Source: Gemmatimonadales bacterium (GTDB taxonomy: Bacteria; Gemmatimonadota; Gemmatimonadetes; Gemmatimonadales; GWC2-71-9). From it: DNA of 64,000 nt. Below the pieces are notes generated by a model. It searched no databases. It saw only the letters and a program-made list of their open reading frames with translations, and was not told where the DNA came from. The number at the start of each line of letters is the position of its first letter. Position 1 is the stretch's first letter. The DNA lies in the NCBI GenBank assembly GCA_041577295.1, contig JBFGJG010000002.1, forward strand, positions 103,039 to 167,038, given 5' to 3'. A program made the translations under genes and the position numbers. Shown here piece after piece: positions 15,222 to 43,846 of this stretch.

Positions 15222-15285
15222 TACGGAGGGGGTTCGGCTGCCTTGGCGTGGCGTGACGGCACCCCATCACAACGGAGTAATCTCA

Positions 15286-17247: not shown

Positions 17248-17258
17248 CAGCGGCGGCT

Positions 17259-17324
17259 CCCATCACCCGTTACCGCCTTTTCACAGGCTCAAGAGCCTGT
17301 GGGAAGGCGGTGGCGGGTGATGGG
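17259..17324 (+). promoter_or_regulatory. Long imperfect stem-loop between nosZ and nosB (intra-operon attenuator or mRNA-stabilising element)
   Basis: CCCATCACCCG/TTACCGCCTT/TTCACAGGCTC-aa-GAGCCTGTG/GGAAGGCGGT/GGCGGGTGATGGG. About 28 paired positions in three helical segments. Starts 12 nt after the nosZ stop. No U-tract follows. Confidence 0.5.
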
Positions 17325-17347
17325 TCGCTAGCGAGATACTACACGAC

Positions 17348-20204: not shown

Positions 20205-21019
20205 TGACCACCGCCACACTCTTCGTCCGACGAGAGGTCGCGACCGCGCTTCGGACCCGATGGTTCCTGATCTACTCGGCCATCTTCCTCGTAAGTGGAA
20301 TCCTGCTCGTCAGTCTCGGGAATCTCAACGTCGCGCTGTACGGGTACCGGGGATTTGCGAAAGCGTTTGCCGGTCTAGTGCATCTTGCGATGCTCTTCGT
20401 GCCGGTGATGGCGCTTCTCCCGGCGACCGCGACGATTGCCGAAGAACGAGAGAGTGGAGCGCTGGAGTATCTGCTCGCCCAACCGGTCAGCTTTGGTCAG
20501 GTCTTTTTTGGAAAGTGGGCGGGAGTGAGTGTGGCAGTGCTCCTTGCCTTGATCGTGGGGTTCGCCGCGGCCGGCGCAGTCGCCGTGCTTCGAGGCGTGC
20601 CACCGGCGCTGATCATCACCCTGTTCGGATTCGTGATCCTGCTGGCGCTCGCATTCGTGGCCCTGGGCCTATGCATTTCGGCCATCGCATCGGCACGGGC
20701 TCAGGCTGTTACGTGGGGGCTCATTGCATGGTTGGCGCTCGTCGTGCTGAGCGGCCTCGGCGTCCTCGTCGCTTTCGTCCGCTGGGGAATCTCCGAGCGT
20801 CTGCTCGTGCTGTGGACGTTCATCAATCCCACCGAAGCCTTCCGCATTGGGATTGTCACCGTTTTGGATCCCGATCTGAGCCTGCTCGGCCCTCTGGGGG
20901 CGAATATTGTCGAACGGCTCGGCGCCGGGGGAACGGTGGCACTCACAGGACTGACGCTCACCGCGTGGATCGTCCTCCCAGGTCTTGTCGGCTGGCTGGT
21001 GTTTCGACGGGCGCGGTAG
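20201..21019 (+). CDS. nosY: NosY, ABC-2 type permease
   Basis: 272 aa with six TM segments. ATG overlaps the nosF stop. Position is canonical for nosDFY. Confidence 0.8.
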   Translation: MMTTATLFVRREVATALRTRWFLIYSAIFLVSGILLVSLGNLNVALYGYRGFAKAFAGLVHLAMLFVPVMALLPATATIAEERESGALEYLLAQPVSFGQVFFGKWAGVSVAVLLALIVGFAAAGAVAVLRGVPPALIITLFGFVILLALAFVALGLCISAIASARAQAVTWGLIAWLALVVLSGLGVLVAFVRWGISERLLVLWTFINPTEAFRIGIVTVLDPDLSLLGPLGANIVERLGAGGTVALTGLTLTAWIVLPGLVGWLVFRRAR

Positions 21020-25825: not shown

Positions 25826-27304
25826 TCACACGTCGTAGTACAGGAAAAACTCGTAGGGATGAGGACGGAGCGCCATCGGACCACACTCCTTGTGGCGCTT
25901 GTACTGCAGCCAGGTCTCAATGACATCTCTGGTAAACACGCCCCCTTCCATCAGAAAGTCGTGATCGCTCCCAAGGGCATCGAGTGCTTCGTTCAACGAT
26001 CCCGGGGTATTCTTGACCAGCATGCGGTCCGCCGGATCGAGCTCGTAAAGGTCTTTGTCGATAGGGGCCGGCGGCTCGATGCGATTGCGGATCCCATCGA
26101 GTCCGGCCATCAACAAGGCTGCAAAGGCCAGATAGGGATTGCAGGATGGGTCCGGTGCGCGAAACTCGATCCGCTTCGACTTTGCCGAGTCGCTGTAAAC
26201 GGGGATGCGGCAGATGGCACTGCGGTTCCGTTTTGAGTACACGAGATTGATAGGGGCTTCGTACCCAGGAACCAGCCGACGATATGAGTTCGTCGTGGGC
26301 GCTACCAGCGCCAGCAGCGCAGGCGCGTGCCGCAACAGCCCCCCGATGTAGAACCTCGCGGTCTCCGAGATCAATCCGTAGCCGTCTGCTGCATAAAAGA
26401 GGTTCTGCTCGTCCTTCCACAAGCTCTGGTGCACATGCATCCCCGATCCGTTATCTCCAAACAGCGGCTTTGGCATGAACGTGGCCGTGTAGCCATGCGC
26501 GTTGCAGACGTTCTTGACGATGTACTTGTACATCATCACCTGGTCCGCCATTCGCACCAACGTGTTAAATCGCATGTCGATCTCGGCCTGACCCGCCGTA
26601 CCAACCTCGTGGTGCTGCACTTCCACCTCGACGCCAGAGTCCTCGAGTGCCAGCATGATCCGTGACCGCAGATCTTGCATCTTGTCCAACGGGGGAACCG
26701 GGAAGTACCCCTCCTTGTGTCGCGGACGGTGAGCGAGGTTCGGCTGCCCGCCGTCGCGACCGGAATTCCAGATGCCTTCCTCCGCATCGATGTGGTAGTA
26801 GCCTTCGTGGGCGTTTTGGTCGAACCTGACCGAGTTGAACGCGTAGAACTCCGCCTCCGGACCCCAGTAAGACGTCGTTGCGATCCCGGACTTCACGAGA
26901 TAATCCTCGGCCTTGCGCGCGATGAACCGTGGATCACGACTGTACTGCCTTCCCGTGGTGGGGTCGACGATGTCGCACACCAGAACGAGCGTCGGGACTT
27001 CCAAGCAGGGATCCACAAATGCGGAGGAGGGATCCGGCATGAGCAGCATGTCGCTTTCGTGGATCGCCTGAAACCCGCGAACGCTCGAGCCGTCGAAGCC
27101 GAGGCCCTCCGCAAACAGATCTTCTGTGAGTGCCCGCGCCGGGATGGAGAAGTGCTGCCACTGACCGGGAAGGTCGCAAAAACGCACATCAACCACTTTG
27201 ACGCCGCTCTCCCTCGCCTTACTGACCACGTCGGCGGCGGAAGACGACGGGGTCGGGTCCAGTTTGAGGCCATCCGATGCTTTCGGCGGCATTGTCGCGG
27301 TCAT
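25826..27304 (-). CDS. glnA: Glutamine synthetase type I (beta-subtype-like), copy 1
   Basis: [61 protein letters not shown], and a Tyr-containing loop KDLYELDP at the adenylylation-loop position. Start set at ATG 27304, preceded by AAGGAG. The tracked start at 27388 adds 28 unsupported residues. Confidence 0.9.
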   Translation of the reverse strand: MTATMPPKASDGLKLDPTPSSSAADVVSKARESGVKVVDVRFCDLPGQWQHFSIPARALTEDLFAEGLGFDGSSVRGFQAIHESDMLLMPDPSSAFVDPCLEVPTLVLVCDIVDPTTGRQYSRDPRFIARKAEDYLVKSGIATTSYWGPEAEFYAFNSVRFDQNAHEGYYHIDAEEGIWNSGRDGGQPNLAHRPRHKEGYFPVPPLDKMQDLRSRIMLALEDSGVEVEVQHHEVGTAGQAEIDMRFNTLVRMADQVMMYKYIVKNVCNAHGYTATFMPKPLFGDNGSGMHVHQSLWKDEQNLFYAADGYGLISETARFYIGGLLRHAPALLALVAPTTNSYRRLVPGYEAPINLVYSKRNRSAICRIPVYSDSAKSKRIEFRAPDPSCNPYLAFAALLMAGLDGIRNRIEPPAPIDKDLYELDPADRMLVKNTPGSLNEALDALGSDHDFLMEGGVFTRDVIETWLQYKRHKECGPMALRPHPYEFFLYYDV

Positions 27305-27426
27305 GAGCGGTCTCCTTGCTCTGTAAAGACGCCGGGCCGACCCAGCAGAGTGGGGCGACCCGGCGGTCGGTCCATAGGTGTCCAGCAACGCACGGCTGAA
27401 GCTATTGGTCGCCTGTCATGGTGTCA

Positions 27427-27757: not shown

Positions 27758-28528
27758 TTAGCGAAACTCCACGACCACCGGGGCATGATCCGAGGGCTTT
27801 TTTCCCTTGCGCTCATTGCGATCCACGAACGCCTGTGCGCACCGGTCGGCCAAGCGCTTGGTAGCGAGTACGTGGTCCAGGCGGAGGCCGTTCCCCTTGG
27901 GAAACGCCAGCATACGATAGTCCCACCATGAATAAGGTCCTGGCCCCTCGTGGTGGAGTCGCATAGTGTCGACGAGCCCCCACGCCAGAAGGTTTCGCAT
28001 GGCCTCCCTACCCTCTTCGTGGCACAACACGGTATCTCGCCACTCGTCGGGTCTGGCTACATCACGATCTTCCGGCGCGACGTTGAGGTCGCCGCAGACT
28101 AGTAGCGGTGTATCGGGGTCGTAGCGCCGATCGAGGTAGCTGATGAGGCGGCGAAACCACTCCAACTTGTAGATCCACTTGTCGGTGCCCACTGCTGTAC
28201 CGAGGGGGACGTAGGCTGAGACAATGCGCGTCGTATCCACGGTAGCCGCAATGCAGCGTGCCTCGTCGTCGTCCAGCCCATCGTCAAAGCCGCATTCGAT
28301 ATCTCCCGGCTCAGTCGTCCGACTCAGAATCGCCACGCCGTTGTACGTCTTCTGCCCGTAGATCGCGGCACGGTAGCCGGCCGACTCGATCCGATCGATC
28401 GGAAACTGATCATCGGCGACTTTCGTCTCCTGCAAGCACACCACGTCCGGCGTGGTGCGCTCCAACCAGGACACGAGCCTGTCGAGGCGGGCCCGGATCG
28501 AATTGATGTTCCACGTGGCCACTCTCAT
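27758..28528 (-). CDS. xthA: Exodeoxyribonuclease III / AP endonuclease
   Basis: MRVATWNINSIRARL..., VVCLQETK, and C-terminal SDHAPVVVEF. Start set at the ATG giving MRVATWN. Confidence 0.9.
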   Translation of the reverse strand: MRVATWNINSIRARLDRLVSWLERTTPDVVCLQETKVADDQFPIDRIESAGYRAAIYGQKTYNGVAILSRTTEPGDIECGFDDGLDDDEARCIAATVDTTRIVSAYVPLGTAVGTDKWIYKLEWFRRLISYLDRRYDPDTPLLVCGDLNVAPEDRDVARPDEWRDTVLCHEEGREAMRNLLAWGLVDTMRLHHEGPGPYSWWDYRMLAFPKGNGLRLDHVLATKRLADRCAQAFVDRNERKGKKPSDHAPVVVEFR

Positions 28529-28573
28529 CGTGAGACCGCATTCCAGCGAGGCAACGCCCTCATCTGCTCGCAC

Positions 28574-28704
28574 TCACCGCAGCCGCAACACCGACCTCTG
28601 TGTTATCTGCTAACAGCTTGTTGTACAATTGGTTAGTATCGACCATGTGAAACGTTGTTTTACCTAATAAATAAATTAGCGAAAGCGAAAACCGCCCCCG
28701 TTGA
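28574..28704. promoter_or_regulatory. AT-rich divergent promoter region between xthA and the SDR gene
   Basis: Visibly AT-rich in a GC-rich genome. Contains the palindrome TTGTACAA and the stretch CTAATAAATAAATTAG. Confidence 0.3.
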
Positions 28705-29613
28705 TTGCCGGGAGATGCGCCCTCGATCCATGGCAAAGCCGCCGGCGGCTCGTCAGGACGCCGGCCACCGCATAAGATACGCGTCACCCATGTCGTTTCG
28801 GAGGGATCCATCGAGTCACAGCAGCCGTTGACCGGAAGGCGAGCCATCGTGTGTGGGAGCACCCGTGGAATCGGTCGCGCTTGTGCGTTCGAGCTGGCCA
28901 GGCTGGGTGCACACGTCACGCTGCTTGCGCGGGATGCCCAGGCACTACTGCGAACCCGGGACGATCTGTCCAAGGCTTCGTGGCCCACACCCGAGCACGA
29001 TTGCCTCGTTGCCGACTTCACGGATCCGCATCAGGTGAGTCGCCTAGTGCGGGAGTACCTCGAACGATCGGGTACCGCGGCGCACATTTTGGTCAACAAC
29101 ACCGGTGGCCCGCCCTCCGGCACCATCCTCGACGCCCATCACGACCAATTCGTTGCAGCGTTTGCCAGCCACCTGCTGTGCAACCATCTGCTGGCGCAGG
29201 CGGTGATCCCTGGCATGAAACGGGCTGGGTACGGGCGCATCATCAACATCGTGTCGACGTCAGTGAAGCAGCCCATTGCCGGCCTCGGGGTCTCGAACAC
29301 GGTTCGCGGCGCCGTTGCGAGCTGGGCCAAGACGCTTGCGAGCGAGGTGGCGCGAAGCGGCATAACGGTGAACAACGTGTTGCCCGGTGCCACACGAACA
29401 GACCGGCTGCTCTCGATCATCGAGCACCGCGCCAAGTCCCTTGGCGTGACTGCGCAGGAGGTCGAGCACACCATGAAAAGCGAGATCCCCGCGCGGCGCT
29501 TTGCCGAGCCGGAGGAGATTGCTGCGGCGGTTGGCTTCCTCGCTTCGCCAGCAGCCTCGTACATTACTGGCGTGAGTCTGGCGGTCGACGGCGGACGCAC
29601 CAACTGTCTCTAG
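28705..29613 (+). CDS. Short-chain dehydrogenase/reductase with an atypical active-site region (true start uncertain, probably 60-100 nt downstream)
   Basis: Rossmann motif CGSTRGIGRA and NNTG. Where classical SDRs carry YxxxK, the sequence reads GVSNTVRGAVASWAK. First gene of the + strand SDR/ALDH/RidA group. Confidence 0.8.
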   Translation: MPGDAPSIHGKAAGGSSGRRPPHKIRVTHVVSEGSIESQQPLTGRRAIVCGSTRGIGRACAFELARLGAHVTLLARDAQALLRTRDDLSKASWPTPEHDCLVADFTDPHQVSRLVREYLERSGTAAHILVNNTGGPPSGTILDAHHDQFVAAFASHLLCNHLLAQAVIPGMKRAGYGRIINIVSTSVKQPIAGLGVSNTVRGAVASWAKTLASEVARSGITVNNVLPGATRTDRLLSIIEHRAKSLGVTAQEVEHTMKSEIPARRFAEPEEIAAAVGFLASPAASYITGVSLAVDGGRTNCL

Positions 29614-29689
29614 GATTGTCGTCGTCGCTGCCACCACGCGTAGCCGCACCGGTCACCGATGGTCCGATGGAGATCAGGAGATAGCCGTC

Positions 29690-31159
29690 ATGCTGGACAT
29701 CCAGAACTACATCGGTGGCGAGTTAATCCCGCCTCAATCAAAGGCGTATCTCGACAACGTGGAGCCGGCGACGGGGCAGATCTACTCCCGTATCCCCGCG
29801 AGCGATGCCAGAGATGTCGAGCGTGCCGTGCAGGCAGCGGAAGACGCGTTTGCCGGCTGGTCGCGCGCGCCGGTGGAGGAGCGATCACGCATCCTGTTGC
29901 GCCTCGCGGACCAAATCGAGTGCCGGCTCGACGAGTTCGCCCACGCCGAGTCGGTCGACACGGGGAAACCGCTGTCCCTCGCTCGGTCAGTCGACATCCC
30001 CAGAGCGGTGAAGAACTTTCGGTTCTTCGCGACCGCCATCATGCACTTTCGGTCCGAGGCGCACGCCACCGACTACGCCGCGCTCAACTATACACTGCGA
30101 CGTCCGCGCGGCGTCGCGGGGCTCATCTCGCCGTGGAACCTCCCTCTCTACCTCCTGTCGTGGAAGGTCGCGCCGGCAATCGCCGTCGGAAATACGGCCG
30201 TGGCAAAACCGTCGGAACTCACCCCGATGACGGCTTTTAAGTTGAGCGAGTTGGCCATCGACGCAGGCTTACCACCCGGTGTCCTGAACATTGTTCATGG
30301 CACGGGACCCGATGTCGGGGAACCCATCGTACTCCACGAGCACGTGGCGACGATCTCGTTCACTGGAGGGACCGCCACTGGCTCGCGCATTGCATCGAAG
30401 GCGGCGCCAATGTTCAAGAAGCTGGCACTGGAGCTCGGTGGGAAGAACCCCAACATCGTGTTTGCCGACGCTGACCTGGATGAAGCGTTGGAGGGAAGCC
30501 TCCGGGCCGCGTTCGCGAATCAGGGTCAGGTCTGTCTCTGTGGATCTCGCGTGTTTGTGGAGCGCCCGGTCTTCGAGACATTCCTCGAGCGATTTGTCGC
30601 CGGAGCACGTGCGTTGAAGATCGGCGATCCGCTCGATGAACACACGCAGCAGGGCGCGGTCGTGTCACGCGCGCACTTCGAAAAAGTGATGCACTACGTC
30701 GAACTCGCGCGCGAAGAAGGTGGTGAGATCCAGTGTGGCGGCGGCGCGCCGACAGATCTCCCCGAGCGATGCAAAGACGGTTTCTTCGTTGAGCCAACCG
30801 TGGTGACGAACCTTGGCGTCAACTGCCGTACCAACCAGGAGGAAGTATTTGGCCCATTCGTCACCGTGATGCCGTTCGAGTCCGAGACACAAGTAGTGGA
30901 ATACGCCAACGCGACTCCCTACGGTCTCTCGGCATCTCTCTGGACGCAAAACCTTTCACGGGCTCATCGCGTGGCTGAAGGTCTACAAAGCGGCACGGTC
31001 TGGGTGAACTGCTGGCTCCTGCGGGATCTGCGTGTGCCCTTCGGTGGCATGAAGCAGAGTGGGGTGGGCCGCGAGGGAGGCGAGGAGGCGCTCCGGTTCT
31101 TCACCGAGCCAAAAAACGTCTGTGTGCAGGTCCCAGGGTTGGGTGGGCCGTCGCGGTGA
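29690..31159 (+). CDS. Aldehyde dehydrogenase, likely 2-aminomuconate-6-semialdehyde dehydrogenase
   Basis: ALDH motifs ELGGKNP and catalytic-Cys region GQVCLCGSR, plus FTGGTATG. Function inferred from coupling to RidA and the adjacent kynurenine/ACMSD genes. Confidence 0.75.
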   Translation: MLDIQNYIGGELIPPQSKAYLDNVEPATGQIYSRIPASDARDVERAVQAAEDAFAGWSRAPVEERSRILLRLADQIECRLDEFAHAESVDTGKPLSLARSVDIPRAVKNFRFFATAIMHFRSEAHATDYAALNYTLRRPRGVAGLISPWNLPLYLLSWKVAPAIAVGNTAVAKPSELTPMTAFKLSELAIDAGLPPGVLNIVHGTGPDVGEPIVLHEHVATISFTGGTATGSRIASKAAPMFKKLALELGGKNPNIVFADADLDEALEGSLRAAFANQGQVCLCGSRVFVERPVFETFLERFVAGARALKIGDPLDEHTQQGAVVSRAHFEKVMHYVELAREEGGEIQCGGGAPTDLPERCKDGFFVEPTVVTNLGVNCRTNQEEVFGPFVTVMPFESETQVVEYANATPYGLSASLWTQNLSRAHRVAEGLQSGTVWVNCWLLRDLRVPFGGMKQSGVGREGGEEALRFFTEPKNVCVQVPGLGGPSR

Positions 31160-31578
31160 ACCGGCCACCGGCTGACACGACGAGTACACGCGCTCCGGAA
31201 CCCGTGGGAGCGTTTCCCCATGCTCGGCGGGTCGGCAACTTCCTTTTCCTGTCGGGGATGGGCCCACGAAAGCGTGGTCACACGGATATTCCGGGTGTGA
31301 CGTTGAGCGCCGCGGGAGAGGTGGTGTCCTACGACATCGAAATACAATGCCACGCGGTATTCGAGAACATCCGAATGGTGCTCGAGGATGCCGGTTCAAG
31401 CTGGGAGCGGATTGTTGACGTGACGGTGTTCCTCACCGACATGCAAAGAGACTTTGCGACGTTCAATCGGCTCTACGCTGAGTACTTTGTCACCAACCGT
31501 CCCACACGCACCACGGTGGAAGTAGGCCGGCTTCCCACACCGATCGCCATCGAGCTGAAAGTGATTGCGACGGTCTGA
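31156..31578 (+). CDS. RidA/YjgF-family deaminase, likely 2-aminomuconate deaminase
   Basis: 140-aa YjgF fold (FLFLSGMG...VTVFLTDM...RPTRTTVEVGRLP). GTG start overlaps the ALDH stop (GTGA). Confidence 0.7.
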   Translation: MNRPPADTTSTRAPEPVGAFPHARRVGNFLFLSGMGPRKRGHTDIPGVTLSAAGEVVSYDIEIQCHAVFENIRMVLEDAGSSWERIVDVTVFLTDMQRDFATFNRLYAEYFVTNRPTRTTVEVGRLPTPIAIELKVIATV

Positions 31579-31582
31579 GAAA

Positions 31583-32200
31583 TCAGAGCGTGCGCAGCAC
31601 CGCCCTCACGGGACTGGCATCGAATCCCACCAGTCGAAGCGGCAGCGCGATGAGCTCATAGAGACCCTCAGGAACGTTGTGCAGCACGAGACCCTCGAGA
31701 ATCGTGATGTCGTATTTCACGCACGCCTTGTGTGCTCGTAGATCCTTGGACGTGCTCGGATCCACGCTCGGCGTGTCGATCCCGACTAGGGTGACCTCTA
31801 GCCGGTTGAGATGCGCAATGGCGTCTGGCGTGAAAGCGGCGAAATCGTCGTTCCAGTCAGTTGGATCGGGAAAGGTGCCGGTGGCAATCAACACGCGAGG
31901 CGCTCGCACCCGTTCGCCAATCAACTCAGGTGTGATCAACTTCCCGCGCGGGACGCTCACCCGGATCACCTGGCACGGTCCCAGGTAACGCTGCAGATCG
32001 ACCTCGTCCACCGATGGTGCCGCTGCACTGATGTGGCTCGGCGCATCCGTGTGTGCTCCAATGTGGACGGTCGAGTGCACGCTCGAAAGCGTCAGGTGAT
32101 CACCTGCCGCCAACTCCAGCAGCACTTCTCGAGACAACGGGGTATCGCCTGGAAAGACGCTGCTATTCGCCGAAACGGGTGGAGAGATATCGTACAACAT
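31583..32200 (-). CDS. kynB: Kynurenine formamidase (cyclase family)
   Basis: Metal-binding motif HIGAHTDAPSH, N-terminal DISPP...FPGD, 205 aa. Last gene of the minus-strand operon. Confidence 0.8.
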   Translation of the reverse strand: MLYDISPPVSANSSVFPGDTPLSREVLLELAAGDHLTLSSVHSTVHIGAHTDAPSHISAAAPSVDEVDLQRYLGPCQVIRVSVPRGKLITPELIGERVRAPRVLIATGTFPDPTDWNDDFAAFTPDAIAHLNRLEVTLVGIDTPSVDPSTSKDLRAHKACVKYDITILEGLVLHNVPEGLYELIALPLRLVGFDASPVRAVLRTL

Positions 32201-32203
32201 GGG

Positions 32204-33025
32204 CTAGAGCTTTTCTCGAACCGCCCACAGATCGTGAAATACCGGACGAAAGAGCGATTGCTTGAGGAAATCGACTCCCACCGATCCACCAGTCCCCCGC
32301 TTGTGGCCGATGGCGCGCTCGGCAAGCTTCACGTGCCGGTAGCGCCACTCTTGCATACCCTCATCTAGATCCGTCATGAGCTCGAACAGAATCGCCACGT
32401 CTGGCCGCTCCCGATAGAGCCGCAGGACCCCGTCCTGGACCTGCACATTGGGCTCTGCTGAGAGCGTGGGGTCCTTTTGCTTGAGCTGCTCAGGAATCAC
32501 CACACCCTGATGTTCCAGAAAGTCGTAGAAGTGATCAACGATCGAGCGGTCTCGCAACCGCTTTTCGAGCTTCTTGCGTTCCGATGTACCTGGAGCAAAC
32601 GTCTCGATCATCTTGCTACGCTTGAACCCCATTACAAACTCCAACTCCCTGAACTGACATGACTGGAATCCGGACGCGGTCTCTAGCCGGTCGCGAAACG
32701 CGGTGAACGACATGGGTGTCATCGTCTCGAGAATATCGAGCTGACCTACCAGGGTTTTCATGACCGTGCGGATGCGTTTGAAGGTCGCGATCGCACCGAA
32801 GAGATCGTTACTACTGAGGTCCCGTTTCACCTTGTCGATCTCGTGCAGGACCAGTTTGAACCAGAGCTCATACACTTGATGAATCACAATGAACAACAAC
32901 TCATCGTGTTCGGGGGGATCCGAACGAACGTCCTGTAGATCGAGCAGCTTGTGCAGCTTGAGGTATTCCGTGTACGTCAGATCCATCCTATTGATCTCCG
33001 AGTTTCGCGTCGCCTCAACACCCAT
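32204..33025 (-). CDS. kynA: Tryptophan 2,3-dioxygenase
   Basis: LTYTEYLKLHKLLDLQ, DELLFIVIHQVYELWFK, SGFQSCQFRELEF, GHKRGTGGS. Confidence 0.9.
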   Translation of the reverse strand: MGVEATRNSEINRMDLTYTEYLKLHKLLDLQDVRSDPPEHDELLFIVIHQVYELWFKLVLHEIDKVKRDLSSNDLFGAIATFKRIRTVMKTLVGQLDILETMTPMSFTAFRDRLETASGFQSCQFRELEFVMGFKRSKMIETFAPGTSERKKLEKRLRDRSIVDHFYDFLEHQGVVIPEQLKQKDPTLSAEPNVQVQDGVLRLYRERPDVAILFELMTDLDEGMQEWRYRHVKLAERAIGHKRGTGGSVGVDFLKQSLFRPVFHDLWAVREKL

Positions 33026-33026
33026 T

Positions 33027-34358
33027 TCAGCCGACCAACCACCACATCCCCACTCCGGCGAGCGCCAAAAGGACGATCGTGATCCCTACGACGGTGCGCC
33101 ACTGAAGCCGGTTGCGCCGAACGGCATCGGCATAAGGTGTCAGCGTGAACGTTACCATCGAATACAGCGGTACGAACCATCGCGGGAACGCCCGATGCAA
33201 CACTTTCTCCAGCTTCTTCTTGGCGAGAAACGTACGGGAGGCCACTCTGTCTCGCATCTCGAGGAAGTTTTCCACGGCCAGATCCGCCAGGGCGTCTGCA
33301 TGCAACTTTCTGAGATCCTGATAGGCAGCGAACGCCTGCCCCCAGTCCGGGGCGTGCACCCTCAAGCAACGATCGAGGATCACGCAATCCTCGAAGGCGG
33401 CATTGGCACCCTGCCCGTAGAACGGAACGACCGCGTGGCAAGCATCTCCAACGAGCACGAGCCGATCCCGATAATGCCACGGAGCGCAACGGATGGTCAC
33501 GAGAGAGCTCGTGGGATTGCCAAAGTAATCCTCAACGAGCGTTGGCATGAGGGGGACGGCGTCGGCGAACACCTTTTCGAAGAATCGTTCCACGCGTTGT
33601 GCTGAATCGAGTGCGGCAAAGCTGTTCGGACCCTCGAACGGCCAGAACAACGTGCAGGTGAAGGAACCATCGTGGTTGGGGAGCGCGATCATCATGAAGC
33701 CCCCACGAGGCCAGATATGCAGCGCGTTGGGCTCGAGCGCGAACACTCCTTTTTCGAGCGGAGGGATCTCGAGCTCTTTATAGCCGTGCTCGAGGTACGC
33801 CTGTTCGTAATTGAACCGGTCGAGCCGTAACATCTGACGACGGGTCATCGAATACGCTCCGTCGGCACCGACAATCACGCCACCGTCCGTCGTAAACCCC
33901 TGGCCGGTTTCTGTATTCTCGAGAGTGATCGTTCCCGAATCGAGGTCGAGGTCGACACACTTCGTAGAAAAGCACATCTCCACATTTGGGTGCGATGCTG
34001 CCGCTTCGATGAGGAGGAGATTGAGGCCGTTGCGAGACACGGAGTGGATCACCTCCGCTTCGTCCACGCCGTACGGCTGGAAGGTGAGCTGCCCGTGCTC
34101 GTCGTGCATCATGCGACCACGCATCGCGACGGCCATTTCCAACACGCGGTCGGCCAGATCGACCTGCGAAAGTGCGTGAAGACCGCGAGTCGAGATGGCG
34201 AGGTTGATCGATCGCCCTCCTGCCAGTGGATCGATGCGAGGATCGGGACGTCTATCGAATACCGTAACCCGATGTCCCTGGCGTCCGAGGTAGACAGCCA
34301 TGAGTGCTCCGGCCAACCCGGCTCCCAGGACAGTGAAACGACCCGTCGGTGCGCTCAT
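33027..34358 (-). CDS. kmo: Kynurenine 3-monooxygenase (FAD-dependent) with a C-terminal hydrophobic anchor
   Basis: FAD fingerprint VLGAGLAGALMAVYLGRQGHRVTVFDRR. Second FAD motif LVGDACHAVVPFYGQGANAAFEDC. C-terminal RTVVGITIVLLALAGVGMWWLVG. Confidence 0.85.
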   Translation of the reverse strand: MSAPTGRFTVLGAGLAGALMAVYLGRQGHRVTVFDRRPDPRIDPLAGGRSINLAISTRGLHALSQVDLADRVLEMAVAMRGRMMHDEHGQLTFQPYGVDEAEVIHSVSRNGLNLLLIEAAASHPNVEMCFSTKCVDLDLDSGTITLENTETGQGFTTDGGVIVGADGAYSMTRRQMLRLDRFNYEQAYLEHGYKELEIPPLEKGVFALEPNALHIWPRGGFMMIALPNHDGSFTCTLFWPFEGPNSFAALDSAQRVERFFEKVFADAVPLMPTLVEDYFGNPTSSLVTIRCAPWHYRDRLVLVGDACHAVVPFYGQGANAAFEDCVILDRCLRVHAPDWGQAFAAYQDLRKLHADALADLAVENFLEMRDRVASRTFLAKKKLEKVLHRAFPRWFVPLYSMVTFTLTPYADAVRRNRLQWRTVVGITIVLLALAGVGMWWLVG

Positions 34359-35677
34359 CGAGATTTTCCATGCATGACACGGGTCACGATGTCATTCAGG
34401 ATCCCGCCGACCTGCCACACTTCGTGAAAGGTGTTGTACAGCGGAACCGGTGCAAGACGGATGACATCGGGGTCGCGAAAATCGCCAACAACGCCATGCG
34501 CACTCAACTCGTCGAACATTGCGCGGCCATGTTGCGGCACGCGAATCGACAGCTGACACCCTCGTGCGTTCTGATCGCGCGGCGTGATGATCTCGAGATG
34601 GCGCGTACCGTTGTGGTCAATGAGGTACTCGAGGTATCCGGTCAGGCGAACGGATTTGCGGCGAAGGGCCGGGATCCCGGCTTCGGTGAAGATGTCGAGC
34701 GACGGACGGAGCCCCGCCATCGAGAGGATGGGAGGGTTGCTGATCTGCCAGCCGTCAGCGCCGACCTGCGGGACGAAGTCGACGTTGGACTGCATGCGAA
34801 ACCGCGTCTCGGGATCGTTCCCCCACCAACCCGCAAACCTCGGCAGGGACGCGGTCCCGTAGCGCTCGTGAACGAAGGCGCCAGCCACCGAGCCGGGGCC
34901 GCCGTTGAGATACTTGTACGAGCACCAAACCGCGAAGTCCACATCCCACGCATGCAGGGCAAGCGGGACGTTGCCAACCGCATGGGCGAGGTCGTACCCA
35001 ACCACGCACCCCGCCCGACGGGCCGCCCGCGTGATGCGATCCAGGTCAAAGAACTGACCGGTGTAGTAGTTGACGCCGCCGAGCATCACGAGCGCGATCT
35101 CACGTCCTCGCTTTGTGAGCAGCGACTCGAGGTCTTCCGTGCGGAGACAGTCCTCACCGTCTCGGGGGTGCACCTCCAGCAGCCCCTCGTTTGCGTCGTA
35201 GCCGTGCCACTGGAGTTGTGACTGGACCGCGTAGCGATCGGACGGGAAGGGACTGGCTTCAATGAGGATTTTGTGCCGCTCCGCTGAGGGGCGGTAGAAA
35301 GACACCATCATGAGATGCAGATTGACCGTGAGCCCGTTCATTGCGACGACCTCGTGCGGCTCCGCGCCGACGAGCTGAGCGAGCGGCTCGCGCAGGACTT
35401 CGTGGTACGAGTACCAAGGTGTGCCGGCGTCGAAGTGTCCTTTGACCCCGAGCGTTTCCCAGTCCTGGATCTCACGGTTTACCACGTCCCGTACTGTCTT
35501 CGGCATCAACCCGAGCGAGTTGCCACACAAGTAAACCAATGGCTCACCACGGGCGTTTCTCGGCAGGGCAAATCGATCCCGGTAGCTGCGCAGTGGATCG
35601 GTCGCGTCGAGCTCGCGCGCGAACGCCTCCTCAGTTCGAAACGCGATGTCAGCCGACGACTTGCTCGCATACCTCAC
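34355..35677 (-). CDS. kynU: Kynureninase (PLP-dependent)
   Basis: FALPRN...VYLCGNSLGLMPK, PLP-Lys region DFAVWCSYKYLNGGPG, and C-terminal IRLAPVPLYNTFHEVW. Confidence 0.9.
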   Translation of the reverse strand: MRYASKSSADIAFRTEEAFARELDATDPLRSYRDRFALPRNARGEPLVYLCGNSLGLMPKTVRDVVNREIQDWETLGVKGHFDAGTPWYSYHEVLREPLAQLVGAEPHEVVAMNGLTVNLHLMMVSFYRPSAERHKILIEASPFPSDRYAVQSQLQWHGYDANEGLLEVHPRDGEDCLRTEDLESLLTKRGREIALVMLGGVNYYTGQFFDLDRITRAARRAGCVVGYDLAHAVGNVPLALHAWDVDFAVWCSYKYLNGGPGSVAGAFVHERYGTASLPRFAGWWGNDPETRFRMQSNVDFVPQVGADGWQISNPPILSMAGLRPSLDIFTEAGIPALRRKSVRLTGYLEYLIDHNGTRHLEIITPRDQNARGCQLSIRVPQHGRAMFDELSAHGVVGDFRDPDVIRLAPVPLYNTFHEVWQVGGILNDIVTRVMHGKSR

Positions 35678-36702
35678 GAGCCGAAGCCACCACGGTCAGG
35701 GAGGCCAAGAAACTCGAGCGCCGTGCCTCCCAACAGCCGTTCCTTCACATCCGGTGAGAAGTCGGGCATCGAGTCGATCAAGCGTCCTGGTACGTGCTCT
35801 CCCAGTGGAAACGGATAGTCCGACCCGAGGGCGACTCGCTCGGGTCCAAGCAGGTTGACGAGGTAACGCAGTGCATCGGCATCGTGCACCAGTGAATCGG
35901 TGTAAAACGAGCCGAGGAAGGACCGCGGATTCACCTCACAGTCCACCGCACAAAGGTCGGGGCGGACCTGAAACCCGTGCTCGATGCGTCCGATGGTACC
36001 GGGAAAGGATCCGCCACCGTGGGCAAAGGCGACTCGCAGGTTTGGCAAACGGCGCAGCACACCGCCAAAGATCATGGAACAAATCGCGAGCGCGGTCTCC
36101 GCTGGCATCCCCACGAGCCACGGGAGCCAGTACTTGGGCATCCGATCCTTCCCCATCATGTCCCACGGGTGCACGAACACCGCCGCTCCAAGATCTGCCG
36201 CGCTCTCGAAGACCGGAAACAGCTCCGGCGCATTCAAGTTCCAATCGTTCACGTGACTTCCGATCTCGACACCCGCCAGACCCAAATCATTGACGCATCG
36301 TTCCAGTTCGCGGATCGCGAGCGTCGGCTCCTGCAGCGGCAGCGTTCCGAGACCGACGAAGCGTTTGGGGTGTCGCTGCACGACGTCAGCGATATGGTCG
36401 TTCAGCAGCCTCGAGAGATCGTTGGCGTCGTGGGGTTTCGCCCAGTAGCTGAACATGACCGGCACCGTTGAGAGCACCTGGACGTCGACGCCATGCCTGT
36501 CACATTCCTCTAAGCGGCGCTCAGGTGACCAACAGTTGTCTTTAACTTCGCGAAAGCAGCGATCATCGATCATCACGCGGGCGCGGCCCGGCTGATGATG
36601 GTCCAGACGCACAAACCCCCCATAGCCGTACCGTTCCCGCAGGTCAGGCCAGCGTTCCGGGAGGATGTGCGTATGAAGGTCGATCTTGAGCGGCGTGGAC
36701 AC
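35674..36702 (-). CDS. nbaD: 2-amino-3-carboxymuconate-6-semialdehyde decarboxylase (amidohydrolase_2)
   Basis: Colinear with animal ACMSD as I recall it: KIDLHTHILPERWPDL, STVPVMFSYWAKP, YWLPWLVGMPAETALAICSMIFGGV, FAHGGGSFPGTIGRIEHGF, GSDYPFPLGE. Confidence 0.85.
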   Translation of the reverse strand: MSTPLKIDLHTHILPERWPDLRERYGYGGFVRLDHHQPGRARVMIDDRCFREVKDNCWSPERRLEECDRHGVDVQVLSTVPVMFSYWAKPHDANDLSRLLNDHIADVVQRHPKRFVGLGTLPLQEPTLAIRELERCVNDLGLAGVEIGSHVNDWNLNAPELFPVFESAADLGAAVFVHPWDMMGKDRMPKYWLPWLVGMPAETALAICSMIFGGVLRRLPNLRVAFAHGGGSFPGTIGRIEHGFQVRPDLCAVDCEVNPRSFLGSFYTDSLVHDADALRYLVNLLGPERVALGSDYPFPLGEHVPGRLIDSMPDFSPDVKERLLGGTALEFLGLPDRGGFGS

Positions 36703-36712
36703 CCGCGAGCGC

Positions 36713-37243
36713 TCAGCTCGCCTTTGCAGGGACCGGCACTTGCATGACCGTACCGCAGTGCTTGCAGGTTCTCAGCTTCTCGTCGCTGTAAAAATTCTCG
36801 ATGACCGGCTTGAGTTGCGTACCGAGATCGACCAACTCAAACGACGCGTCATAGAGCAGCTTGTCGCACTTCTCACAATACCACTGGAGATGATCTCGCT
36901 CGCCTGATCGACGCCGACGCTCCACCACTAAGCCGACCGTGTTGGCCGGGCGCTGAGGCGAATGCGGTATTCCGGCCGGCAACAAGAAGATGTCGCCCTC
37001 TTTGATCTTGATGTCGCGCTTCTTTCCATCCTCGATCACGCGAACGGTAATCTCACCCTCGAGCTGATAGAAGAGCTCCTCTCCGTCTTCCACGTGAAAG
37101 TCTTTTCGTTGGTTCGGGCCGCCGACCACCATGACCAAAAAGTCGCTGTCTTGCCAAACCATCTTGTTGCCCACCGGTGGCTTGAGAAACTCCCGGTGGT
37201 CTTCGACCCACTGCCGCAGATTCAGAGCCGTGCGCTGTGTCAT
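36713..37243 (-). CDS. nbaC: 3-hydroxyanthranilate 3,4-dioxygenase (cupin)
   Basis: Cupin motifs FHVEDGEELFYQLEG and IFLLPAGIPHSPQR. C-terminal rubredoxin-like CEKC...CKHC site. Confidence 0.9.
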   Translation of the reverse strand: MTQRTALNLRQWVEDHREFLKPPVGNKMVWQDSDFLVMVVGGPNQRKDFHVEDGEELFYQLEGEITVRVIEDGKKRDIKIKEGDIFLLPAGIPHSPQRPANTVGLVVERRRRSGERDHLQWYCEKCDKLLYDASFELVDLGTQLKPVIENFYSDEKLRTCKHCGTVMQVPVPAKAS

Positions 37244-37266
37244 TGCAACCCCCGCCGTAGTTTTCG

Positions 37267-37282
37267 CGATTCTTTAGAATCG
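37267..37282. promoter_or_regulatory. Perfect palindrome 24-39 nt upstream of the nbaC start codon (candidate operator of the kynurenine operon)
   Basis: CGATTCT-TT-AGAATCG, 7-bp perfect inverted arms. Confidence 0.3.
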
Positions 37283-37485
37283 ATCGACTCGTTGTTTACT
37301 ATCGTTCGGGTGAAGCAGCAAAGCAAGCCAAGAGGGCTGGGGAGCGCTGGTGGGATCGTGGCGAGTGTGGGCCGTGAGGATTTACGTGCGGCAGAGGTGT
37401 TGGGCGGGGGCTATGGACGCACCACACCGTCAGCCCTCAGGAGGGAGTGTGCTAAGGCGCGCTAAGGGCTGACGGACTGGTACGG

Positions 37486-37704
37486 TTATGCGGTGGCCCT
37501 GCCAGTTCCCCGGCAGTAGACGCAGCTGCTGGCGGCCGTCGAGTCAAAGCCAAAAGGCCCGCCAGACCCCCGCCCGCCGCAGAACGGACAGGGTTCGCTG
37601 CGATGGGCCCGCAGCTCTGCTAGCTCTCGCCCCAGATCCACCCGCTTGCGATCCTCGAGACAAGGACCGTCATGATCTGAGTAGCAGCGATCACACCACG
37701 CCAT
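37486..37704 (-). CDS. 72-aa Cys-rich mini-protein with DnaJ-type zinc-finger motifs
   Basis: MAWCDRC..., CPFCGGRG and CVYCRGTG (CxxCxGxG twice, plus an N-terminal CxxC). AGGAGG lies 5 nt upstream of ATG 37704. Confidence 0.45.
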   Translation of the reverse strand: MAWCDRCYSDHDGPCLEDRKRVDLGRELAELRAHRSEPCPFCGGRGSGGPFGFDSTAASSCVYCRGTGRATA

Positions 37705-38077
37705 ACGGACCTCCTGTGCGGAGCGAAACCACCCTCCTTGCATCCGCGACTACCACGTCTGCAGTCGGATACGGGCAATTTCCGGGCCTGATTACCGAAG
37801 GTCGAACGAGTGGGGCGACGGCTTTGCGCCGCGTGTCTCCTGGATCCTTTCACGTTGCTCCCCGGCGACATATGGAGACCGGTTACCACGCCGACGCTTG
37901 GGAGTTGATCGCGGGGGCGGTAGCTTTTCCACCAATTGTTGCGTCGGAGATTGGAGATGCGCTGCGCCTCACCGTGCTCGTGCGAGCCACCGTGACGCTG
38001 ACCGTGGCAGCTGCCCCGCACTCATCGGTCACGATTCGCGAGTGGGCCGTTTCGGGGGAAGACTCGCGCTCGATACC

Positions 38078-38665
38078 ATGACTCACGAGGGCATCCGATC
38101 CGGCATCCTCTGCTGCGCGCTGCTCATTTCGTGGGCGGCAGCAAAGGGCACCGCGCCCGGATATCGAGACGGTCCTCCCCTCGCCCACACCGGCGGGTTT
38201 GGCGAGCCCACCTGCCTCGAGTGTCACTTCGACCTCCCGGTGAACGATCCCGCAACCCGCCTCCTCGTCACCGGCGTTCCCGACGCCTACGAATCGGGAC
38301 AACGCTATCCGATCAGGCTCACGCTGCACCGGGCGATGCTTGGCCGCGGCGGATTTCAGCTCGCCGTCCGCTACAGCGAGCCCGCCGGGCTGGCCGGAAA
38401 GCAAGCCGGCACGCTCCGTTCCTCGAACGCGGACGTTCAGGTGCTACCGGATTCTGGCACTGGCGTGTCATACGCGCAGCACACGGAGATTGGCACGCGA
38501 CCAACCAATGACACGGTCTCCTGGGCCGTGGAGTGGGTGGCGCCAACGGGACCATCACGAGGCAGGGTCGTGTTTCATTTGACGGCCAACGCCGCCAACG
38601 ACGACGCCTCGGAGTTTGGCGATTACATCCTAGTCCGGCGTCTGTTCTCAGCTCGCCGGGACTGA
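38078..38665 (+). CDS. Secreted protein of unknown function with an N-terminal HTGGFGEPTCLECH (CxxCH) motif and an all-beta (Reeler/DOMON-like?) body
   Basis: Signal peptide ILCCALLISWAAA. One CxxCH motif. Then beta-rich segments GQRYPIRLTL, GGFQLAVRY, SWAVEWVAP, VVFHLTANAAN. The tracked upstream extension (37898) was rejected in favour of ATG 38078. Confidence 0.5.
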   Translation: MTHEGIRSGILCCALLISWAAAKGTAPGYRDGPPLAHTGGFGEPTCLECHFDLPVNDPATRLLVTGVPDAYESGQRYPIRLTLHRAMLGRGGFQLAVRYSEPAGLAGKQAGTLRSSNADVQVLPDSGTGVSYAQHTEIGTRPTNDTVSWAVEWVAPTGPSRGRVVFHLTANAANDDASEFGDYILVRRLFSARRD

Positions 38666-38686
38666 CCGCGGCGCATCCTCGACCTG

Positions 38687-38899
38687 TTACCGATGTCCTT
38701 CCACCGTGAATGAGATCTTGGCATTCACGCGATACTGCTCGATCTTGTCCCCGTTGACCGTGCACGAAAAGTTGTCGATCCAAACGGACTTGATGCCTTT
38801 GACGGTCTTGGCTGCCTCTTTGACCGCATTCTGCGTTGCGTCGTCAAAGCTCTTATTGGACTGAGCGATGACCTCGATGACCTTCACAATGCTGCCCAT
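38687..38899 (-). CDS. Dodecin-family flavin-binding protein
   Basis: 70 aa: SIVKVIEVIAQSNKSFDDATQNAVKEAAKTVKGIKSVWIDNFSCTVNGDKIEQYRVNAKISFTVE. This is the beta-alpha-beta-beta dodecin pattern. Confidence 0.7.
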   Translation of the reverse strand: MGSIVKVIEVIAQSNKSFDDATQNAVKEAAKTVKGIKSVWIDNFSCTVNGDKIEQYRVNAKISFTVEGHR

Positions 38900-43180: not shown

Positions 43181-43846
43181 CTAACGGCTACTTATCGTCT
43201 GCTTCGTTTGGCCGCGTTGCAGGAGACGGCACACTTCTTCGTCCGTCGTCTGCGTGAAGTCGTCGTAAAAGGTTCCCACGGCCGGGAAGGCTTCTGGGGT
43301 CGCCAGGCATACGAAGGCATCCGCTGTGCGCTCGAGGTTCTCGCGCGCTTGCATGGCCGCCACCGGCGTAGCCACCACCACCTCGCGTGCCCCCCTTTGC
43401 CGCACCGCTTTCACCGCCGCGAGCATCGTGCTTCCGGTGGCGATGCCATCATCGATCAGAATGACCCGCCGTCCGAGCACCTCGACTGGCGGTCGATCAC
43501 CGCGGAACAGCGCGGCGCGACGCGTCACTTCCATGCGCTCTCTACGAATCGCGTCGTCGATGTATAGCCGAGATACGCGCAGCAGGTCGATCACTTCACG
43601 GTTGAGAATCACGACATCGCTCGTGACCGCACCGACAGCCAGCTCCGGTTGCTGCGGCGCGCCGAGCTTCCGTACGACGAGGACGTCGAGGGGGGTGTCG
43701 AGAGCGTGAGCAACTTCATACGCCACCGGCACTCCGCCGCGCGCGAGACCGAGCACGACCGTGTCGGAGCCCTGGTACTGCATGAGTGCCCGAGACAGGT
43801 GACGCCCCGCCTCGCATCGGTCCGCAAACGTTACACTCGTTCGCAT
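43181..43846 (-). CDS. Phosphoribosyltransferase-domain protein
   Basis: PRPP-binding motif RRVILIDDGIATGSTM. 221 aa. Confidence 0.75.
   Translation of the reverse strand: MRTSVTFADRCEAGRHLSRALMQYQGSDTVVLGLARGGVPVAYEVAHALDTPLDVLVVRKLGAPQQPELAVGAVTSDVVILNREVIDLLRVSRLYIDDAIRRERMEVTRRAALFRGDRPPVEVLGRRVILIDDGIATGSTMLAAVKAVRQRGAREVVVATPVAAMQARENLERTADAFVCLATPEAFPAVGTFYDDFTQTTDEEVCRLLQRGQTKQTISSR

Follow-up and report, generated by a model that had tools for sequence, protein, structure and literature searches.

The sequence analyzed in the current work, a 64-kb stretch of a Gemmatimonadales contig (hereafter the window), carries nine intact open reading frames (ORFs), recognized by ORF listing and family searches and spanning positions 28828-37243, which on grounds of homology are predicted, with a probability of roughly 80%, to constitute a two-operon catabolic cluster of the kynurenine pathway encoding the steps through 2-aminomuconate. 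One of these genes specifies an SDR (short-chain dehydrogenase/reductase), which comparison with related loci identifies as a conserved member of the kynurenine cluster. It is tentatively proposed, with a confidence somewhat short of an even chance, that this SDR reduces 2-aminomuconate or 2-oxohex-3-enedioate toward 2-oxoadipate, a reaction that would explain the existence of a cluster type without genes for a 4-oxalocrotonate decarboxylase, hydratase and aldolase. The cluster as such belongs to the known bacterial kynurenine/3-hydroxyanthranilate catabolic systems, its new feature being the conserved reductase that replaces the meta-cleavage genes.

In the proposed pathway, tryptophan 2,3-dioxygenase (TDO) would convert tryptophan to N-formylkynurenine, from which a KynB-type formamidase would generate kynurenine. 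Kynurenine 3-monooxygenase (KMO) would then yield 3-hydroxykynurenine, kynureninase 3-hydroxyanthranilate, and 3-hydroxyanthranilate dioxygenase (HAAO) 2-amino-3-carboxymuconate semialdehyde (ACMS). The corresponding decarboxylase (ACMSD) would produce 2-aminomuconate semialdehyde, an aldehyde dehydrogenase (ALDH) 2-aminomuconate, and a RidA-type protein would deaminate the latter to 2-oxohex-3-enedioate, each of these steps being assigned by homology. Next, the SDR would use NADPH to reduce the conjugated C=C bond of 2-oxohex-3-enedioate, giving 2-oxoadipate; alternatively, it may act first, on 2-aminomuconate, with the RidA-type protein subsequently hydrolyzing the resulting enamine or imine. 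The 2-oxoadipate would finally be converted via glutaryl-CoA to acetyl-CoA by a housekeeping route, and its handling by housekeeping enzymes fits a locus without any further conserved neighbor. Old work on liver extracts, cited in bioRxiv 10.64898/2026.06.05.730449, had reported that 2-aminomuconate is converted to 2-ketoadipate in an NAD(P)H-dependent manner, and 2-aminomuconate is described in the same source as deaminating spontaneously as well.

A first-pass annotation of the window had claimed that the locus encodes every step from tryptophan to 2-aminomuconate as well as its deamination. Family and Protein Data Bank (PDB) searches, which matched each enzyme, bear this out, with the deaminase as a probable assignment, and all family assignments made for the individual genes held. 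HAAO matches the Pfam 3-HAO family at 216 bits and the PDB entries 3fe5 (189 bits), 5tk5/2qnk (183 bits) and 1yfu (178 bits), which we take to be the bovine, human and Ralstonia enzymes, respectively. ACMSD aligns with the Pseudomonas fluorescens ACMSD at 229 bits and with human 2wm1 at 494 bits, the human alignment running without a gap over 330 residues at 60.3% identity, which agrees with the colinearity with animal ACMSD noted in the first pass. Similarity to characterized ACMSD extends over the full length, and the equivalents of human His6, His8, His174 and Asp291 (presumably the metal ligands) and of Arg47, Arg235 and His224 (presumably the substrate-binding and catalytic residues) are all identical and occupy invariant columns in a 19-sequence alignment. 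Kynureninase contains the KYNU_C domain and scores 417 bits with the human enzyme versus 197 bits with that of P. fluorescens. The ten best PDB matches of KMO are all KMO, among them 6lkd (350 bits), 5fn0 (330 bits) and 4j2w (241 bits), which we assume to be the rat, P. fluorescens and yeast enzymes; the alignment starts at residue 7 and therefore supports the long version of this ORF. TDO scores 168 and 167 bits with PDB entries 2nox and 2nw7 (presumably from Ralstonia and Xanthomonas) versus 128 bits with human TDO.

As regards the last steps, the seven best PDB matches of the ALDH are all 2-aminomuconate-6-semialdehyde dehydrogenase (AMSDH), at 464-475 bits. Equivalents of Arg120, Arg464, Cys302, Glu268 and Asn169 of the P. 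fluorescens AMSDH are retained, and the motifs DIPR, ELGGKN, QVCLC and LRDLR align with residues of 4npi, at an offset of 17 from the published numbering. The ALDH accordingly possesses the catalytic Cys/Glu pair and both substrate arginines, given that in the P. fluorescens enzyme Arg120 and Arg464 bind the substrate carboxylates while Cys302 and Glu268 are catalytic (PMC4286809). The RidA-family protein shows the expected fold and keeps the conserved Arg within a PTRTTVEV motif; the 2-aminomuconate deaminase 6izh is its second-best PDB match at 85.6 bits, the generic RidA protein PH0854 scoring 90 bits. Orthologues with 63-75% identity are present in 15 related clusters, and the protein is probably a 2-aminomuconate deaminase, an assignment supported by its genomic context.

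In order to survey related loci, 80 genome loci were fetched via ACMSD alone, with 10-kb flanks, and all ORFs were clustered together with those of contig L001 (GCA_041609635.1), which is identical to that of the window, resulting in a set of 81 loci. The most conserved families were ACMSD (80 loci), HAAO (58), KYNU (52), KMO (42) and the SDR (41), ahead of ALDH (36) and RidA (15), so that the SDR ranks fifth, and no other real gene family was present in more than 16 loci. An SDR orthologue, 51-63% identical, lies within 10 kb of ACMSD in 33 of the 44 fully flanked loci, the number for kynureninase being likewise 33. Wherever SDR and ALDH are both present (27 loci) the SDR gene is located directly upstream of the ALDH gene on the same strand, with a gap of less than 400 nt in 23 cases; this constant adjacency may reflect that ALDH makes NADH and the SDR uses NAD(P)H. 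The reverse search gave the same picture, since all eight SDR homologues that had been picked solely for their long contigs adjoin kynurenine genes. Four of these eight loci are co-directional operons, three of them reading TDO-SDR-ALDH-RidA-HAAO-ACMSD, the co-directional order extending to TDO-SDR-ALDH-RidA-HAAO-ACMSD-KYNU-KMO. The association thus persists through three gene orders (convergent, co-directional and dispersed) and through at least seven phylum-level lineages, namely Bacteroidota, Gammaproteobacteria, Planctomycetota, Binatia, Ignavibacteria, Gemmatimonadota and the window's own lineage. Pairwise identities of the SDR and of the pathway enzymes are correlated (rho 0.60-0.74), a value of little weight as it mostly reflects shared species phylogeny. 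Matches of the SDR on plasmids are at most 44% identical.

A number of separate observations were made on these related loci. In eleven of them (L017, L035 and others, at approximately 11049-11891), several being gammaproteobacterial (Colwellia, Kangiella), a 280-aa formamidase of a second type within the cyclase family is encoded between ACMSD and kynureninase, and in L086 a 130-aa protein without a Pfam match (10792-11184) is inserted between SDR and ALDH. The metagenomic locus L090 (1-4958) presents SDR, KMO and cyclase genes adjoining trpE, G, D, C, F and B, which form a complete operon for tryptophan synthesis, so that synthesis and degradation are encoded side by side. An SDR that is 92% identical to that of the window (P0128) is found on a 2.1-kb contig labelled Acidiferrobacterales, and a kynureninase at least 90% identical is labelled Rhodothermales; one of the two metagenome-assembled genome bins is probably contaminated, the Acidiferrobacterales label being the probable binning error. 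The Rhodothermales label, together with the Rhodothermaceae among the best ACMSD matches, would make a member of Rhodothermales the probable source of the locus. Two apparent fusions, a 430-aa SDR (P0129) and a 493-aa ACMSD (P0003), were rejected as assembly artefacts in which some 170 and 150 residues, respectively, are duplicated in tandem within the protein. Genes for an AlkB-like oxygenase, Ogt, a TonB receptor, a glycosyltransferase and a Na/H exchanger were likewise rejected as pathway members and ascribed to lineage-specific synteny.

The SDR is encoded where a lower pathway would otherwise be expected. Pfam scans of 52 further ORF translations of the window, almost all of at least 180 aa, revealed no quinolinate phosphoribosyltransferase (QPRT), fumarylacetoacetate (FAA)-hydrolase, aldolase or 4-oxalocrotonate tautomerase (4-OT), and tblastn with 13 proteins from three reference clusters found neither dmpE/F/G/H nor 4-OT in the window. 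Both searches agree with the earlier statement that the window contains no nadC and no meta-cleavage genes. Its sole phosphoribosyltransferase (43181-43846) is of type I (PF00156) and not a QPRT, which leaves the window without nadC, and the cluster is not adjoined by meta-cleavage genes of the nba or Colabroy-Begley type, there being no match to the 13 queries and no FAA_hydrolase or HMGL-like domain in the window. When the same 13 queries were applied to the window together with 89 related loci (1.55 Mb), no homologue was retrieved, the sole match being an unrelated LeuA.

A contrast set was formed by five plasmid loci (L093-L097, from Cupriavidus, Bacillus, Vibrio, Streptomyces and Niveispirillum) in which HAAO occurs together with an ACMSD of the Pseudomonas-like type, 40-44% identical to that of the window. 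Each of the five carries ALDH, RidA and dmp-type genes, the latter specifying an FAA-family decarboxylase and hydratase, an acylating acetaldehyde dehydrogenase and a 4-hydroxy-2-oxovalerate aldolase, with a tautomerase in addition in Bacillus. None of the five clusters encodes an SDR orthologue, the best similarity being 27%. A sixth plasmid locus, that of a Rhizobium "ACMSD" (L098), was excluded as it represents a different decarboxylase and is without HAAO. Two architectures are consequently distinguished, in one of which the SDR takes the place held by meta-cleavage genes in the other. The fate of the carbon skeleton had been left open in the first-pass annotation, where the SDR was treated as a mere neighbor; the absence of lower-pathway genes from the window stands, and the comparative evidence now makes the SDR the prime candidate for the next step.

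Two of the plasmid clusters (L093, 1841-2491 and 11570-12151; L094, 6504-9183) contain, beside HAAO, genes for a flavin reductase or NAD(P)H-oxidoreductase and a 4-hydroxyphenylacetate-3-hydroxylase-like gene. Their presence suggests that plasmid clusters of this type receive their substrate from the hydroxylation of anthranilate or of a related aromatic compound, not from kynurenine.

When the SDR was compared with NCBIfam, no model reached its cutoff (the best being PRK08339, 183 versus 339). Database labels for its homologues are solely "SDR family oxidoreductase" or "3-oxoacyl-ACP reductase", and the literature searched assigns no role to the family. The protein carries the motifs GSTRGIG and NNTGG and the catalytic Ser143, and an Arg follows beta-strand 2. 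In the classification of SDR proteins, an Arg in the Gly-rich motif together with an Arg after the second strand is the pattern of NADPH use, and the enzyme looks NADPH-dependent. The position of the classical Tyr-x3-Lys is occupied by Ser156-Asn157-Thr158-x-Arg160, a motif that does not vary among the 40 orthologues of either of two independent sets; these catalytic positions were mapped against an E. coli FabG reference, whose own motifs aligned as expected. Of the hallmarks of a classical SDR, the Gly-rich motif, the Asn motif and the Ser are therefore present, with Tyr replaced by Ser156 and Lys by Arg160, and the protein is, as judged from its sequence, an SDR fold with an atypical active site. 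The same Ser/Arg substitution is seen in the closest solved proteins, namely three NADP-bound Burkholderia SDRs, TM1169 and APE0912.

An AlphaFold2 model of the SDR (predicted local distance difference test, pLDDT, 92) retrieved from the PDB, by structure search, the NADP-bound Burkholderia SDRs as best matches, followed by AerF and YwfH/BacG, which are the nearest characterized structures (template-modelling score 0.90-0.93, 29-33% identity, 109-122 bits). Both bind NADPH, and the structure of AerF was solved with NADPH and 4-hydroxyphenylpyruvate. AerF and BacG add hydride to dihydro-4-hydroxyphenylpyruvate (H2HPP), at a C=C bond conjugated to the 2-oxo acid group. The product of this reduction is the tetrahydro compound H4HPP (PMC9147277; also reported in Walsh-laboratory work and the AerF structure paper). 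As an alpha,beta-unsaturated 2-oxo acid, 2-oxohex-3-enedioate would fall into the same substrate class, an analogy that is supporting, not decisive. Unlike the SDR of the kynurenine cluster, AerF and YwfH/BacG serve secondary-metabolite pathways (those of the aeruginosin Choi moiety and of bacilysin, respectively) and act on cyclic substrates, and sequence identity to them is low.

Several findings weigh against the proposed reading of the locus, both in its core assignments and with respect to the reductase. TDO reaches 242 bits with TIGR03036, under the cutoff of 390; the formamidase matches the arylformamidase model TIGR03035 over its full length at 206.5 bits, just under the cutoff of 223; and the best NCBIfam model for the ALDH is TIGR03216 (2-hydroxymuconic semialdehyde dehydrogenase), at 581 bits and under the equivalog cutoff of 693. 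The structures closest to the SDR, those from Burkholderia (37% identity), are functionally uncharacterized, and its scores with FabG and hydroxybutyrate dehydrogenase (about 95-110 bits) are barely under those with AerF and BacG, this small margin over ordinary ketoreductases rendering the ene-reductase analogy weak by itself. Many of the loci surveyed are from related Cytophagales, and the counts are consequently higher than the observations that are truly independent. In 24 of the 33 SDR-positive loci no RidA gene lies within 10 kb, owing to which deamination and reduction are possible in either order. Genes for a 2-oxoadipate dehydrogenase and a glutaryl-CoA dehydrogenase were not found by Pfam in the window, where none of the other large ORFs matched an acyl-CoA dehydrogenase or 2-oxoacid dehydrogenase family.

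Four other explanations of the locus were considered. According to the first, which we regard as unlikely though not negligible, the cluster mainly serves de novo NAD synthesis, with ACMS cyclizing spontaneously to quinolinate, nadC being located elsewhere, and ACMSD, ALDH, RidA and SDR serving only to drain and detoxify the surplus, in the manner of mammalian liver. The set of five genes that runs from TDO to HAAO does equal the bacterial tryptophan-to-quinolinate route, reported mostly from Bacteroidetes (PMC4217691), and the cyclization of ACMS is enzyme-free (bioRxiv 10.64898/2026.06.05.730449). However, the 64-kb window contains no QPRT, and ACMSD is placed within the operon, overlapping kynureninase by 4 nt, from which the activities forming and decarboxylating ACMS would be expected to be expressed together. 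The locus contains four more catabolic genes besides, and yet the two roles are compatible.

A second explanation, to which slightly less credit still is given, is that a 4-oxalocrotonate branch is encoded elsewhere in the genome and that the SDR has a side role, for instance in reducing quinone-imines derived from 3-hydroxykynurenine or 3-hydroxyanthranilate, or an aldehyde intermediate. The visible part of the genome amounts to 64 kb, SDRs are versatile and this subfamily is uncharacterized; moreover, a RidA-type deaminase followed by dmp genes is a documented bacterial solution, exemplified by the plasmid clusters described above and by the Burkholderia work cited in bioRxiv 10.64898/2026.06.05.730449. 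Against this, dmpE/F/G/H and 4-OT are missing from all 90 sequences searched, while they are adjacent in all five clusters of the other type. The invariable position of the SDR upstream of ALDH connects it with the 2-aminomuconate end and not with 3-hydroxykynurenine chemistry, and the loss of the catalytic Tyr speaks against an ordinary aldehyde or ketone reductase.

It is very improbable that the SDR, ALDH and RidA genes represent an unrelated aromatic meta-cleavage pathway (acting on 2-hydroxymuconate semialdehyde from catechols or 2-aminophenol) and neighbor the kynurenine genes by chance. The top-scoring NCBIfam model of the ALDH, given above, would accord with such a function, and AMSDH enzymes also accept 2-hydroxymuconate semialdehyde (PMC4286809), but the window contains no extradiol or aminophenol dioxygenase, and in several phyla HAAO and ACMSD occur together with this very trio, which in some cases is placed within one co-directional operon between TDO and HAAO.

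The first-pass annotation had further described the cluster as animal-like. This holds for ACMSD and kynureninase and does not hold for TDO, ALDH, formamidase and RidA, with KMO and HAAO being about equidistant from animal and bacterial enzymes. The animal formamidase is of the alpha/beta-hydrolase type, and in place of an AFMID and an ASPDH-type reductase, as in metazoa, the window encodes a cyclase/KynB formamidase and a RidA protein, none of its proteins giving a Pfam match of the aspartate-dehydrogenase type. Metazoa use ASPDH, not a RidA deaminase, at the 2-aminomuconate step (bioRxiv 10.64898/2026.06.05.730449). The accompanying remark that the route is sparsely distributed in bacteria fails for this type of ACMSD, which is encoded by at least 443 stretches (one genome per species) from at least seven phyla, spanning Bacteroidota, Planctomycetota, Gammaproteobacteria, Gemmatimonadota, Binatia, Acidobacteria, Verrucomicrobia and others. 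At least 8000 relatives were obtained at E<=1e-30, the best of which are 73-81% identical and labelled Planctomycetota, Rhodothermaceae, Calditrichota and Phycisphaerae. With 79 bacterial members human ACMSD shares 54-66% identity; among themselves these members share 56-99%. The resemblance of this ACMSD to the animal enzyme accordingly belongs to a large, old, multi-phylum clade, giving no evidence of transfer into this organism; with an ACMSD type so frequent among bacteria, a recent transfer from animals finds no support.

A recent acquisition of the cluster, or of ACMSD and kynureninase, from an animal or other eukaryote, for which the bit scores of these two enzymes (494 with human versus 229 with Pseudomonas, and 417 versus 197) might be taken to speak, is hardly credible given the even GC content of the window (0.57-0.65), the hundreds of bacterial genomes from many phyla with an ACMSD 66-76% identical versus 60% for human, the bacterial types of formamidase, TDO, ALDH and RidA, and published trees which do not nest bacteria within eukaryotes, those of TDO, KMO, kynureninase and HAAO arguing against eukaryote-to-bacterium transfer (PMC4217691).

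The catabolic cluster proposed here was compared with known systems. Bacterial kynurenine-type clusters have reportedly been known since 2003-2005, through Kurnasov et al. in 2003 and through Colabroy and Begley, working with Burkholderia cenocepacia, in 2005, and the nba genes of P. fluorescens KU-7 are said to constitute a 3-hydroxyanthranilate catabolic cluster with a meta-cleavage lower pathway. The window shares with this nba/Burkholderia type the HAAO, the ACMSD, the AMSDH-type ALDH and the RidA-type deaminase, in the same order of action, and its proteins are 44-48% (ALDH), 40-46% (RidA), 40-47% (HAAO) and 40-44% (ACMSD) identical to those of the plasmid nba-type clusters. It differs in that those clusters possess dmpF, dmpG and, from the FAA-hydrolase family, dmpH/dmpE, in some cases with 4-OT as well, and lack an SDR orthologue, the window presenting the reverse, and in that its ACMSD and kynureninase are of the eukaryote-like branch. 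From the bacterial tryptophan-to-quinolinate pathway for NAD of Bacteroidetes, Xanthomonadales and others, which likewise clusters TDO, KynB-type formamidase, KMO, kynureninase and HAAO (PMC4217691) and ends at quinolinate and nadC, the window is distinguished by the addition of ACMSD, AMSDH, RidA and SDR and by having no nadC.

With the metazoan glutarate branch (TDO2, AFMID, KMO, KYNU, HAAO, ACMSD, ALDH8A1, ASPDH/AMR) the window has in common the intermediates down to 2-aminomuconate, a close ACMSD and kynureninase and, as is to be expected in both, a nicotinamide-dependent reductive step after 2-aminomuconate. It is unlike this branch in using RidA and an SDR, neither of which is related to ASPDH, in its type of formamidase, and in having a TDO and an ALDH closer to the bacterial enzymes. 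Animal ASPDH converts 2-aminomuconate to 2-aminohex-3-enedioate without release of ammonia (bioRxiv 10.64898/2026.06.05.730449).

The dozens of similar loci pair a eukaryote-like upper pathway with one conserved reductase instead of the textbook meta-cleavage genes. It is conceivable, albeit at less than an even chance, that the SDR is the first member of a reductase family, widespread in bacteria, whose enzymes use NADPH to convert 2-aminomuconate or 2-oxohex-3-enedioate to 2-oxoadipate. An orphan "2-aminomuconate reductase" is drawn as EC 1.5.1.- on pathway maps, and this reaction would then be filled. If true, the proposal would also define a second bacterial lower tryptophan pathway (a glutarate branch), mutually exclusive with the 4-oxalocrotonate branch and non-homologous to metazoan ASPDH; it would call for the re-annotation of thousands of "SDR family oxidoreductase" and "3-oxoacyl-ACP reductase" entries, and it would provide a route from aromatic amines to 2-oxoadipate that may be useful to engineers as an adipate precursor. 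The course of tryptophan carbon beyond 2-aminomuconate was partly settled in 2026, with ASPDH acting in animals and a RidA deaminase in fungi (bioRxiv 10.64898/2026.06.05.730449). The SDR module travels with the eukaryote-like ACMSD and kynureninase and could point to the step after the deaminase in fungi, an SDR having been reported as syntenic with some Aspergillus clusters (PMC7842363). The SDR is a single small soluble protein that can be tested in the cultivable Pontibacter, Hymenobacter, Adhaeribacter and Kangiella; should its proposed step fail, the locus stays an ordinary, well-preserved bacterial kynurenine cluster.

Table 1. Positions of the cluster genes and of the adjoining non-coding stretch in the window.
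Feature	Position	Strand	Remarks
SDR	28828..29613	+	261 aa; Pfam adh_short_C2, 145 bits
ALDH (AMSDH)	29690..31159	+	489 aa; Pfam Aldedh, 560 bits
RidA-family protein	31156..31578	+	140 aa from GTG 31156; Pfam Ribonuc_L-PSP, 98 bits
Cyclase (KynB)-type kynurenine formamidase	31583..32200	-	205 aa; Pfam Cyclase, 63 bits
TDO	32204..33025	-	273 aa; Pfam Trp_dioxygenase, 193 bits
KMO	33027..34358	-	443 aa; ten best PDB matches all KMO
Kynureninase	34355..35677	-	440 aa; TIGR01814, 474 bits (cutoff 246)
ACMSD	35674..36702	-	494 bits to human ACMSD 2wm1
HAAO	36713..37243	-	176 aa; NF009763, 261 bits (cutoff 220); opens the minus-strand operon
Non-coding stretch separating HAAO from the ORF upstream	37244..37485	-	presumed promoter region of the six-gene operon

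The ORF listing confirms the nine-gene content and order given in the first-pass annotation, as well as its tight packing of the minus strand with gaps or overlaps of at most 10 nt. When the longest ORFs are taken, the spacing from HAAO through ACMSD, kynureninase, KMO and TDO to the formamidase is 10, -4, -4, 1 and 3 nt. On the plus strand the start of RidA and the stop of ALDH share 4 nt, and the stop codons of the convergent RidA and formamidase genes are 4 nt apart (31576-31585). Within 28400-38000, intrinsic terminators were no more frequent than in shuffled sequence and none was recognizable between the convergent operons, for which reason, with the two stops so close, their transcripts should overlap at the 3' ends. 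Sigma-70-type promoters were no more frequent in this region than in shuffled sequence either, which is to be expected should the host be related to Bacteroidota and use another promoter type. Rfam and tRNA scans gave nothing within or near the cluster.

The span of 28705-37243 originally assigned to the cluster places it correctly, although 28705 is merely the first TTG of an open frame. Because homology begins at residue 42 of that frame, the SDR most likely starts at TTG 28828, from where it measures 261 aa compared with a family median of 262 aa. An ORF overlapping the SDR in another frame (28851-29684) was discarded as it has no family match. In the public gene calls for L001, the contig identical to that of the window, the SDR begins at GTG 28849 (254 aa) and KMO 19 codons late (424 aa). 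Since alignments to solved structures begin upstream of these called starts, the calls appear to cut the N-termini of both proteins, with loss of the first beta-strand or of the beginning of the FAD-binding region. The RidA call on L001 (124 aa) is possibly 16 codons short, a case that is less certain than those of KMO and the SDR.

In the interval between HAAO and a P-type ATPase gene (37486-38665), three small ORFs without a Pfam match are present; the minus strand carries one of 72-85 aa, just upstream of HAAO, and the plus strand two, of 69 aa and 195 aa. The 72-aa ORF could encode a regulator of the operon. A dodecin gene is called on L001 at about 38686-38898. Two full-length glutamine synthetase genes, both on the minus strand (25826-27388 and 56718-58130), are located approximately 30 kb apart, one of them at 1.4 kb from the kynurenine cluster, whose RidA step would release ammonia.

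According to Pfam, the other large ORFs of the window encode sensor kinases, response regulators, cytochrome oxidase subunit I, ZIP transporters and an S46 peptidase, together with an exonuclease III-like protein, a P-type ATPase, a Na/Ca exchanger, a hibernation factor, universal stress proteins and a TonB-dependent receptor. A plus-strand group at 15253-21019 comprises a nosZ-like gene (664 aa, with nos_propeller and cupredoxin domains), a 201-aa ORF, nosD, and genes for an ABC ATPase and an ABC-2 permease (nosF/nosY-like), a gene content which suggests that the organism may be able to respire nitrous oxide.

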